Origin: Haloquadratum walsbyi C23
GTDB taxonomy: Archaea; Halobacteriota; Halobacteria; Halobacteriales; Haloferacaceae
Assembly: GCF_000237865.1 (NCBI RefSeq)
Contig: NC_017459.1
Coordinates: forward strand, 2,940,001-2,972,000
Reading direction: 5' to 3'
DNA length: 32,000 nt
How positions within the stretch are numbered: position 1 is the first letter of the stretch; each line of letters starts with the position of its first letter. A program made the translations under genes and the position numbers. The notes under the pieces are model-generated. The model saw nothing but the letters and a program-made list of their open reading frames with translations. It had not been told where the DNA came from and did not search any database. Below are positions 12,408 through 14,569 of this stretch, in pieces.

Positions 12408-12536
12408 ATATGCAATACGTGTTGAACGTAATAAACGGTGTCGCAGATGGATTACAGAAGTTCAAGGAGAAAGCCCTCCCTTGAGGTCTGTCTTTTACAC
12501 ATAAGTTCGTGGAGTCGTAACCGGACGTTTCAGAGT

Positions 12537-13433
12537 ATGACGTTTTCGCAGTCTGGCTTCGAACTCAAAAACACGAGTGACCGACACGCGACAATCTGGC
12601 TCTCCAAAATCGGAGACATCCCGATCCGCTACCACCGCGAAATCCCTGACGAAGCGGACATCAAAGAAGTTACCGTCAAGAAGGAAACAACCGGTAAGTG
12701 GTTCGTCTGCTTCGGGCTCGAAACCGACGACGCTGACCTTCCTGAGAAACCCGACGTGGAGTCTCTCAACACAACCAACAGCGTTGGGATTGATCTCGGT
12801 AGTCTCAATTACATCTACACAACCGATGGGAAGACCGTGGATTGGCTTGATCTCGAAGACGACTACGAGCGATCGCGCCGCGAACAACGCAAACTCTCAC
12901 GGAAGCAGAAAGGGTCGAACAACTACGAGAAACAACGGCGAGAAGTAGCGAAGCTGAAGCGGCACATCCGTCGGACAGTGTTGGACTACCAGCACAAAAT
13001 AACGACGTGGCTCGTCCGTGAGTACGACGCGGTGTTCGTCGAGGACTTGGACGTAAAGGGAATGTTGGAGCAGTCGCACAATGCTCGCAACAAGCAAGAT
13101 GCAGCGTGGCGACAGTTCATTACACTGCTCGAGTATAAGGCCGGTCTGTACGGCTGTCACGTCGTGCAGATCAAACCAGAGGGAACGACGAAAGAATGTG
13201 CGTCGTGTGGTGTAGAAACAGCAAAACCGATTTGGGTACGTGAACACTCCTGCCCGTCATGTGGGTTTGAGTGTGATCGTGACGCGAATGCGGCGATGAA
13301 TGTCCTGCAACGCGGTTTTTTTGAAGTAGGGCTGGAATGGCCCGAAGACACGCCTGTGGAGACTGCGCTCCCTACGGACACCCATTCGGTGTCTGCAAAG
13401 CGCGTCATCGAAACAGGAAGCCTCGGGGCTTGA
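12537..13433 (+). pseudogene. tnpB: tnpB (OrfB/IS1341-type RNA-guided nuclease family), copy 1, N-terminally truncated
   Basis: RuvC motifs SVGIDLG, VFVEDLDVKGM and CDRDANAAMN. Zinc ribbon CASCG..CPSCG. The RuvC Asp lies only about 85 aa after the first Met, compared with about 190 in full-length TnpB, so the REC/WED N-terminal part is missing. The frame stays open upstream through the terminus to 12438. Confidence 0.8.
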
Positions 13434-13440
13434 CCCCAAG

Positions 13441-14325
13441 ACGGTTCACTCGGCTATTCAGGACCAAGCCATTCGAGAAGCGAAATCTGACCACAGCAAA
13501 GATGGGGAAGTTGAATACCGAGAGAGTCAACCGTTCGCAGTCAACAACCAGAATGGGGAGATCGACACAACCGATAACGGCACAGTCGTCATCGGATTCC
13601 CGTGTGTTTCTCAGTGGTGGTACACGCCTATTGAAGTGTACGACGATATTGCCGATTCTGTAGACCGACTGGTCGAAGGTGACGCCGACAAATCCCGTCT
13701 ACAGGTCTACGGTCGTGGCGACGACTGGTACTGTACATTCAACGCCGAGTACGATACCGACACGTCGAATGGGACATCCATCGGTGTCGATATTGGCGAA
13801 CGACATATTCTCGCTGCAACGGCTTATGATGAAGATGAGTCAATGCTGGTGTCAGGTGATGAGGCAAAGTACGTTCGGCGCAAATATCGTTCCCTACGCG
13901 ATTCGCTCCAACAAGCGGGTGCGCTTCGCGCACGCAACCGTGTGGGTGACAAAGAACAGCGTCGAATCAAGGACTTAAATCATAAACTCTCACGTCGCCT
14001 CATCACGTTCGCGGAACAGTTCAAGAATCCAGTCATCAAACTGGAAGACCTCGAAGGTATCCGCAAGAATAGCTCGTGGTCAGCCATTCACTCGTGGCAC
14101 TTCTATCAACTCCAACAGTTCATCACGTACAAAGCAGAACGTGCTGGTATCAGCGTCGAGAAGGTTGACCCGTACCGTACCAGCAAACTATGTTCAGAAT
14201 GTGGTTCAATTGGAACTCGTGATGAAGATCACTTTTTATGTTCGGAGTGTGACCGTGGACGACATGCCGACCTAAATGCTTCAGAGAATATTGCACAACG
14301 TGAGGGAGAACCATGCACGGCGTAG
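13441..14325 (+). pseudogene. tnpB: tnpB, copy 2 (different subfamily), N-terminally truncated, no start codon at the junction
   Basis: The frame is open from about 13420: ..[35 protein letters not shown]. RuvC motifs [18 protein letters not shown] and [10 protein letters not shown]. Zinc ribbon CSECG..CSECD. The ORF track starts only at GTG 13636. Confidence 0.75.
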
Positions 14326-14569
14326 CAGTTCGGTTGACGCGAACCGTGCTACCTCGCTGGTTGAATAGCCAGCCGTCTTTGACGCCCGTTGTATGCGGGG
14401 AGGAAGGTCCCATTGATAGGACTACACGCGCTGGAACGCACACCGCTGGTCACAACTCGGTGGCAATCTTCGACGGGTCACGCGAAAGCGTATTTGAACC
14501 CCGAGGAAACGCGCAACCTGAATACCCCCTTCGAGGAATCCTCGCGCTTTAGCGCCGGGAGAATGTCAA
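14326..14569 (+). ncRNA. Candidate omega-RNA (reRNA) scaffold / right end of the tnpB2 element
   Basis: GC-rich non-coding 244 nt directly 3' of tnpB2, ending in a terminal hairpin plus GAATGTCAA at the element boundary. In TnpB systems the guide RNA scaffold is encoded in exactly this position (established knowledge). The structure was not verified. Confidence 0.5.

Follow-up and report, generated by a model that had tools for sequence, protein, structure and literature searches.

The 32,000-nt stretch of Haloquadratum walsbyi C23 analyzed here (NC_017459.1, positions 2,940,001 to 2,972,000; hereafter the window) has a G+C content of ~47% and carries archaeal housekeeping genes for FtsY, prefoldin, eIF6, RadA, PspAB, HtpX, NMD3, and an XPD-like helicase, and its proteins find their best matches in H. 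walsbyi. Between htpX (11538–12407, − strand) and NMD3 (14610–15788, + strand) the + strand carries a tandem pair of TnpB-like reading frames, referred to below as copy 1 and copy 2. An initial annotation made from the sequence alone had taken them for a chimeric tnpB-only element built from two different 5′-truncated tnpB genes that share one right end. Comparison of the locus with other alleles and with related elements (L and P numbers denote loci and proteins, respectively) leads us to a different account, in which 12452–14569 very probably holds the remains of three nested mobile elements, a piece of decaying insertion-sequence wreckage between the two host genes.

Two TnpB gene remnants in tandem

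Both frames match the NCBIfam profile guided_TnpB and the Pfam families OrfB_IS605 and Cas12f1-like_TNB, which bears out the description of two tandem, 5′-truncated TnpB frames on the + strand. Copy 1 scores 230.9 bits (2.9e-68; cutoff, 100) over profile positions 112–389 of 389 only, and copy 2 scores 159.5 bits (1.4e-46) over positions 158–389. The open reading frame (ORF) of copy 1 spans 12438–13433, with true homology starting at ~12527 and the first in-frame ATG at 12537 (MTFSQ..., 298 aa). By BLASTP, copy 1 shares 96% identity with P0001, an H. walsbyi TnpB of 408 aa, and the DNA alignment to the P0001 gene begins at ORF nucleotide 321, indicating that ~107 codons are missing. Copy 2 is 92% identical to the 349-aa protein P0121 from residue 57 onward. 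It is a member of the TnpB family that starts at residue 59 and is not full length for its ~349-aa subfamily; no start codon is present at its 5′ boundary, and the first in-frame start is a GTG at 13636. Alignment to full-length haloarchaeal TnpBs fixes the truncation points, and the loss of roughly 100–150 codons that had been proposed for each gene holds for copy 1 (~107 of 408) and overstates the loss in copy 2 (58 of 349).

The assignment of the copies to different subfamilies stands as well. The solved structure closest to the copy-1 family is ISDra2 TnpB, with residues 61–375 of P0001 aligning to ISDra2 67–377, whereas the closest ones to the copy-2 family are Cas12f-like chains. The D-E-D residues of RuvC and the CxxC pairs of the zinc ribbon are all present, as had been listed in the initial annotation: GIDLG (12786–12800), VEDLD (13038–13052), and DRDANA (13275–13292) with CASCG and CPSCG in copy 1, and VDIGE (13786–13800), LEDLE (14041–14055), and HADLNA (14263–14280) with CSECG and CSECD in copy 2. 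The triad and ribbon of copy 1 line up with their counterparts in an ISDra2-like chain of known structure. What copy 1 lacks is the N-terminal part. In ISDra2 TnpB, residues 1–12 and 117–176 form the WED domain and residues 13–116 the REC domain, in which Y52, K76, and Q80 are required for reading of the target-adjacent motif and for cleavage (PMC10097598). Alignment to ISDra2 places the start of copy 1 at about the first residue past REC, so that the complete domain set of WED, REC, RuvC, and TNB is missing WED strand β1 and the entire REC domain. Judged by this alignment, copy 1 is without the part that recognizes the target-adjacent motif and grips the duplex of guide and target.

Element ends, nested insertion, and deletion

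Element ends were determined from 30 aligned independent insertions per family. The copy-1 family begins directly 3′ of TTTAC with A(A/G)GCGGT... and runs to ...GGGGCTTGACCCCGAGGCGATTCAC, where the flank resumes, and the copy-2 family begins 3′ of TTAC (...GGAGAAAGCC...) and runs to ...GGAGGATGTCAA. A by-product of the comparison is thus a set of base-exact ends and targets for two haloarchaeal TnpB families, TTTAC...TTCAC for the 408-aa type and TTAC...GTCAA for the 349-aa type.

Applied to the locus, these ends place copy 1 inside copy 2. The nearest intact relatives of copy 2, L009 and L093, read CTTTAC followed by TCGGCTATTCAGAACC at the point where copy 2 resumes in the window, and the target of the inner element is uninterrupted in both (CTTTAC followed by TCGGCTATTCAG). 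At the same target, allele L001 reads CTTTAC followed by AGGCGGTC..., then copy 1 up to ...GGTTCAC, and then TCGGCTATTCAG. Collinearity gives the corresponding picture over a longer range, as L009 2437–2686 equals L001 2644–2893 and L009 2679–3807 equals L001 4236–5365, with copy 1 lying between. In the window, the right end of copy 1 extends to 13449 and copy 2 resumes at 13450. Because L001 carries the outer left end and codons 1–58 and then the left end of copy 1, copy 1 must have inserted within the copy-2 tnpB gene. The insertion is base-exact, lies 3′ of TTTAC between outer codons 58 and 59, and produced no target duplication, as expected for IS200/IS605-type elements. Both elements sit 3′ of their family motif, TTTAC for the inner and TTAC for the outer, and the outer element reads on without a gap on the far side of the inner insertion.

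The initial annotation had placed the junction between the copies inside a conserved hairpin at 13421–13440, in which the stop codon of copy 1 lies. A recombination of two separate elements at this hairpin, yielding a true chimera with a common right end, would account for the tandem same-strand order and for a junction near a hairpin. However, the hairpin belongs to copy 1 and is complete save for one broken pair (G>A at 13438), the right end of copy 1 is complete to its family terminus at 13449, and each copy has a right end of its own (13449 and 14569). In addition, L001 and L002 carry outer codons 1–58 directly upstream of a complete inner left end, and the outer sequence is unbroken across the insertion, with no base lost or gained, at precisely the TTTAC target of the inner family. 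L001/L002-type contigs are unlikely to be assembly artefacts, given ~20 independent assemblies. As far as sequence can tell, the comparisons of alleles and element ends already refute the chimera, to which we attach practically no probability, and the nested insertion is the arrangement that we carry forward.

The outer boundaries follow from the same family alignments. The right end at 14569 had been placed correctly: the copy-2 family finishes ...GGAGGATGTCAA, the window version is gggagaatgtcaa with 14569 as its last base, and the region from 14326 is conserved across the 30 family loci up to ...GGAGGATGTCAA, with unrelated flanks beyond. The left terminus that had been defined at 12488 belongs to an unrelated MITE (miniature inverted-repeat transposable element) and is its inverted terminal repeat, and the true outer left end is at 12456. 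In 30 independent copy-2-family loci, conservation at the flank starts right after (T)TAC; the left boundary in the window reads gatTAC followed by agaagttcaaggagaaagcc, and the sequence that follows matches the family consensus ...GTTCAAGGAGAAAGCC... and is collinear with L002 2306–2360. Neither element is therefore an intact tnpB-only element, since the outer one combines a complete right end with a left end reduced to a 32-nt stub and the inner one combines a complete right end with a deleted left end.

The stub is cut short by a 47-nt fragment of the MITE. This fragment is the reverse complement of the MITE's right end (L002 2565–2611, 93.6% identity), and a complete MITE sits in the outer left-end palindrome of alleles L002 and L003. 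A complete copy of the same family, 268 bp long with 21-nt perfect inverted terminal repeats (AGCCCTGTCTCTTACCCACAA), is found elsewhere in the window at 2955–3222 and is 89% identical to the L002 MITE. The two sources of the sequence at the junction can be read directly, as the MITE at 2955–3222 has GGACGTTTCAGAcac and full-length copy 1 (L001/L002) has GGGAGTTTCAGAGTATG, with the 8-nt microhomology common to both. Window 11000–12491 equals L001 974–2466 and window 12520–16000 equals L001 3315–6802, so that the window lacks ~850 bp that L001 has, a stretch with the outer left end, outer codons 1–58, and, directly after them, the left end and start of copy 1. The identical junction is present in L169 and L011, and L010 and L012 align continuously across it.

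Taken together, these comparisons point to the following order of events. A tnpB-only IS200/IS605-type element encoding a 349-aa TnpB first inserted 3′ of TTAC. A Tn5-type MITE of ~268 bp then inserted into the left-end palindrome of this outer element, and an inner tnpB-only element encoding a 408-aa, ISDra2-like TnpB followed, inserting 3′ of TTTAC and splitting the outer gene at codons 58/59. In the lineage of the window, GTTTCAGA was present both in the MITE, by then reversed, and in inner codons 107–110, and a deletion between these two copies took out the greater part of the MITE, what remained of the outer left end, outer codons 1–58, and, from the inner element, the left end with codons 1 to ~107. 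Comparison of the sequences shows the three insertions as well as the end points of the deletion; that the MITE was inverted before the deletion is a step that we infer. The outcome is two promoter-less fragments, each with RuvC and zinc ribbon and with its own right end carrying a putative guide-RNA scaffold (Table 1).

Table 1. Positions of the element remnants between htpX and NMD3, in window coordinates
Feature	Position	Strand	Remark
TTAC target motif of outer element	12452–12455	+	Adjoins left end
Outer element left-end stub	12456–12487	+	Runs to MITE insertion point in near-terminal palindrome
Tn5-type MITE fragment, 47 nt, inverted terminal repeat CTGTCT...	12488–12534	+	Orientation opposite to complete MITE in L002
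Deletion junction, 8-nt microhomology GTTTCAGA	12527–12534	+	Common to MITE interior and copy 1 codons 107–110
Copy 1 tnpB remnant	12535–13433	+	Codons ~110–408 of 408-codon gene; first ~107 codons gone
Copy 1 right end and putative guide-RNA (ωRNA) scaffold	13326–13449	+	Overlaps ORF 3′ end; ends ...GACGGTTCAC
Copy 2 tnpB remnant	13450–14325	+	Codons 59–349 of 349-codon gene
Copy 2 right end with the 3′ non-coding region before it, probable ωRNA scaffold	14326–14569	+	Ends ...GGGAGAATGTCAA

The 10-bp direct target duplication expected for the MITE was looked for at its flanks and was not found; CCCTTCAGGG and CCCTGAAGCG, which flank it, are inverted copies of one another. These inverted copies lie at L002 2349–2362 and 2608–2621 and at window 12478–12487, and the orientation of the MITE is reversed in the lineage of the window. 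A candidate for its identity is HqIRS35 ('Duanwu'), a multi-copy MITE of 241–266 bp that is mobilised by the Tn5-type ISHwa2 (PMC3119063 Table S8) and that is reported in opposite orientations at one site in two strains (PMC3119063). The window MITE (268 bp) is close to the listed lengths, is multi-copy, has a Tn5-like repeat beginning CTGTCTCTTA, and likewise occurs in opposite orientations at one site, in the window and in L002. Unlike HqIRS35, it has inverted flanks and no 10-bp direct target duplication. The MITE would thus fit HqIRS35 mobilised by ISHwa2, a likeness by description that consists in length and repeat type only. We also observed that in L026 and L042, from Natribaculum breve, a Tn5-like end (...GTGGGTAAGAGACAG) lies just upstream of, and abuts, the left-end palindrome of a copy-1-family element, indicating that insertion of MITEs or insertion sequences into IS605-type palindromes is not confined to Haloquadratum.

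Allelic variation and probable loss of function

How the two fragments have fared can be followed across 22 alleles of the locus, the window included. Copy 1 is intact in 11 alleles; in L001–L008, L162, L168, and L170, the RadA–PspAB–HtpX ... NMD3 neighbourhood is that of the window, and it encloses a complete 408-aa copy 1 and then the same copy-2 fragment. Seven alleles have a stop at codon 302 of copy 1 (L135, L137, L163, L164, L166, L167, and L171), two of them with an additional 6-nt deletion, and in HBSQ001 (AM180088, L165) copy 1 is interrupted twice, by stops at codons 289 and 302. The window and L169 have the 5′ deletion of copy 1, with an identical junction. In nine alleles, the frame of copy 2 is shifted by 2 nt. 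L010–L012 have undergone a further deletion of 1,082 bp (window 12902–13983) between copies of an 11-nt repeat, AAACTCTCACG, which fuses both genes into a 231-aa ORF (P0186). Among ~30 alleles, none has an empty site or an undisrupted outer element at the locus. Comparison across strains thus brings to light stops, frameshifts, and a further deletion, the population decay that the initial annotation had named as speaking against its reading.

A spot in copy 2 at window 13939–13946 (the GTGTGGGTGAC region) is polymorphic in length, with alleles differing by 0, −2, or −3 nt relative to L002, which indicates that the copy 2 frame has been repeatedly broken and restored. The L169 allele (ENA ERZ24792014) combines the exact junction of the window with the copy-2 haplotype of the other alleles, showing 25 differences from the window in 14000–14500, and this mixture indicates, as read from the haplotypes, recombination within the population.

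Substitutions were polarised with 24 outgroup elements per family, and the counts are small throughout. In the truncated copy 1 of the window, derived changes comprise six replacements and one silent change, the replacements falling where 23–24 of the 24 outgroups agree and including I>S beside a catalytic D, and in the copy 1 of full-length alleles they comprise a single change. The copy 2 of other alleles has 12 replacement and 7 silent changes, among them C>Y in the zinc ribbon. Small as they are, these counts point one way, toward probable decay. Gene conversion was considered for the excess divergence of the window copy 2 (~3.7% over 13500–14500 versus ~1% in the flanks) and rejected, because it is mostly in the other alleles that the derived states lie; for a pseudogene, neutral divergence would be enough to explain how copy 2 differs between the window and those alleles.

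We infer that both copies have lost their protein function, because the N-terminal parts, the promoter region upstream of copy 1 together with its left end, and the start codon of copy 2 are missing, and both fragments would then be pseudogenes in neutral drift. Several observations weigh against this account. The copy 1 frame is free of stops from 12438 to 13433 and the copy 2 frame from 13450 to 14325, and both keep all of their catalytic and zinc-binding residues. The ATG at 12537 lies in frame behind MITE sequence, which could provide a promoter. The window copy 2 shows only three replacement and four silent derived changes, and these numbers alone do not exclude constraint. Finally, none of the retrieved alleles has a complete MITE in the orientation of the window, which is why the inversion enters the proposed series of events as a deduced step.

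Several of the same features would be expected if one or both truncated proteins were domesticated minimal TnpBs, in which a REC-less WED–RuvC–TNB core regulates, binds RNA, or acts on other TnpBs as a dominant-negative partner. The frames are open, the D-E-D and CxxC motifs are whole, copy 1 has its in-frame ATG, and the window-type truncated allele recurs in another sample (L169). Yet the truncation is polymorphic within one species, with full-length, nonsense, and further-deleted alleles coexisting at the locus, and the replacements in truncated copy 1 outnumber the silent change six to one at nearly invariant sites. The lost REC domain holds the residues (Y52, K76, and Q80) whose mutation in ISDra2 abolishes cleavage (PMC10097598), copy 2 opens at its 5′ boundary without a start codon, and L010–L012 already suggest that the ORFs can be lost in close relatives without an effect on fitness. 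The known TnpB-derived regulators point in the opposite direction as well. TldR proteins have lost RuvC residues, and often the C-terminal zinc-finger/RuvC part, and have kept the RNA- and DNA-binding fold, and they form conserved clades with new gene associations (bioRxiv 10.1101/2023.11.30.569447). The window copies resemble TldRs in being TnpB-derived and shorter than their parent, but their triad is whole and the N-terminal recognition part is what has been lost, the reverse truncation, and the truncated state is one of several alleles at a single locus in one species. We therefore consider domestication very improbable. In its most specific form, the 298-aa REC-less core of copy 1 (12537–13433), expressed from a promoter in the MITE fragment, might together with the still complete right-end RNA sequester guide RNAs or interfere with intact same-family TnpBs, and we see only a slim chance of this; if it were true, the locus would encode a TnpB derivative of archaea that lacks its N terminus and has its own role.

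Gene calls of the 298-aa type in other haloarchaeal genera (P0041, P0112, and P0113, each 298 aa, and P0097 and P0104) begin at the same internal methionine, MTFSQ. We considered whether they represent a recurrent truncated family and rejected this on their sequences, as there is at least one mutated catalytic motif (P0112 has VFVKELNV instead of VFVEDLDV) and one frameshifted N terminus. The MTFSQ gene calls look like independently damaged genes, so far as their sequences tell, which again speaks against domestication.

The proposal of a dead recombination product or a minimal derivative can accordingly be divided. The locus is very probably dead, as had been suggested, having arisen through nested insertion and deletion rather than recombination, and the idea of a derivative finds no support. 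The significance of this hardly goes past annotation: the locus cleanly exemplifies nested insertion followed by short-repeat deletions, stops, and frameshifts. It also carries a caution, namely that ORFs with perfect catalytic motifs can be recent pseudogenes and that population alleles of a locus settle such cases quickly.

Right-end RNA regions and related systems

In TnpB elements, the ωRNA gene overlaps the 3′ end of tnpB and the right end of the element (PMC10097598). The last ~125 nt of copy 1, up to 13449, consist of nearly invariant nucleotides in 25 family members from many genera, and the consensus fold of this right end has 54 pairs, eight of them with compensatory changes. This conserved structure fits a putative TnpB guide-RNA scaffold. 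The window alone, among the aligned copy-1-family right ends, shows a C·A mismatch at columns 224/238. In the 3′ RNA region of copy 2, the window has six derived substitutions at positions conserved in the outgroups. An Rfam scan of 11500–15500 gave no family that reaches its threshold; the only match, HgcC at 14403–14582 (+), has 17.9 bits against a threshold of 50 (E = 0.6) and, being far below threshold, was discounted as evidence concerning the copy-2 right end.

The 20 nt 3′ of the copy 1 right end (window 13450–13469; L001 4244–4263) read TCGGCTATTCAGGACCAAGC. They match the TTTAC-flanked site in L009 (~2687) and L093 (~1354) at 19 of 20 positions, with the mismatch at position 13 and all 12 motif-proximal positions identical. 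In full-length alleles, by analogy with ISDra2, these 20 nt would serve as the guide, and such alleles may cut and home into intact copy-2-type elements, a possibility that does not apply to the truncated copy of the window.

These features raise the question of whether the proteins could be dead and one or both right-end guide-RNA genes nevertheless be transcribed and active, whether as small regulatory RNAs or in trans, through an intact same-family TnpB encoded elsewhere in the genome. Both RNA regions are complete to their family termini, and the guide-like sequence corresponds to a TTTAC-flanked site in L009 and L093 except at position 13. On the other hand, both regions have acquired derived substitutions, which in copy 1 break one hairpin pair and in copy 2 number six, and the promoter upstream of copy 1 has been deleted. 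Moreover, a genome scan with P0001, which placed no H. walsbyi genome among its best 80 loci, gave no intact same-family tnpB in the source genome. We regard active guide RNAs as unlikely, albeit less so than a domesticated protein, and retain the view that the whole locus is decaying wreckage of nested elements.

A separate observation concerns five copy-1-family right ends from several genera (L017, L024, L029, L036, and L083), which carry ~60 extra nt with further hairpins in the loop of the terminal hairpin. These loop inserts could mark an alternative form of the guide-RNA scaffold or the insertion of a small mobile sequence.

Among characterized systems, the closest likeness of copy 1 is to ISDra2 TnpB with its ωRNA (PDB 8BF8, 8EXA, 8H1J), with which it shares the D-E-D triad, the zinc ribbon, and a putative structured RNA over the 3′ end of the gene and the right end of the element. 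The target motif is 5 nt long in both cases, TTTAC in the copy-1 family and TTGAT in ISDra2. Unlike ISDra2, the window copy 1 has no equivalent of ISDra2 residues 1–116 (WED β1 and REC) and no left end, and there is no tnpA. By likeness to ISDra2 only, the copy-1 family is predicted to comprise RNA-guided nucleases.

The locus as a whole has its counterpart in the disrupted IS605-/IS1341-type tnpB-only elements catalogued in H. walsbyi, in the same organism group and of the same element class (PMC3119063). H. walsbyi genomes contain 82–100 tnpB genes each, of which 83 of 100 and 77 of 82 are disrupted (Dyall-Smith et al. 2011, PMC3119063), and its mobile elements are strongly prone to insert into other mobile elements and to undergo repeat-mediated deletions (PMC3119063). 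The catalogue and the locus have in common the absence of inverted terminal repeats and of target duplication, near-terminal palindromes, and a target of 4–6 nt, as well as deletions, frameshifts, and stops, a MITE in the near-terminal palindrome, and deletions between short direct repeats. The locus differs from the catalogue (PMC3119063) in nothing of kind. This kind of object is already known, and the locus is one more case of a process described in H. walsbyi. A search of the supplements of PMC3119063 for htpX and NMD3 gave no match to this exact locus.

Elsewhere in the window, an ORF at 23895–24779 (−) encodes an IS1595-family transposase (Pfam DDE_Tnp_IS1595 and Zn_ribbon_IS1595). It sits in the only G+C-rich kilobase of the window, 24001–25000, where the G+C content is 57.6% compared with ~47% overall.

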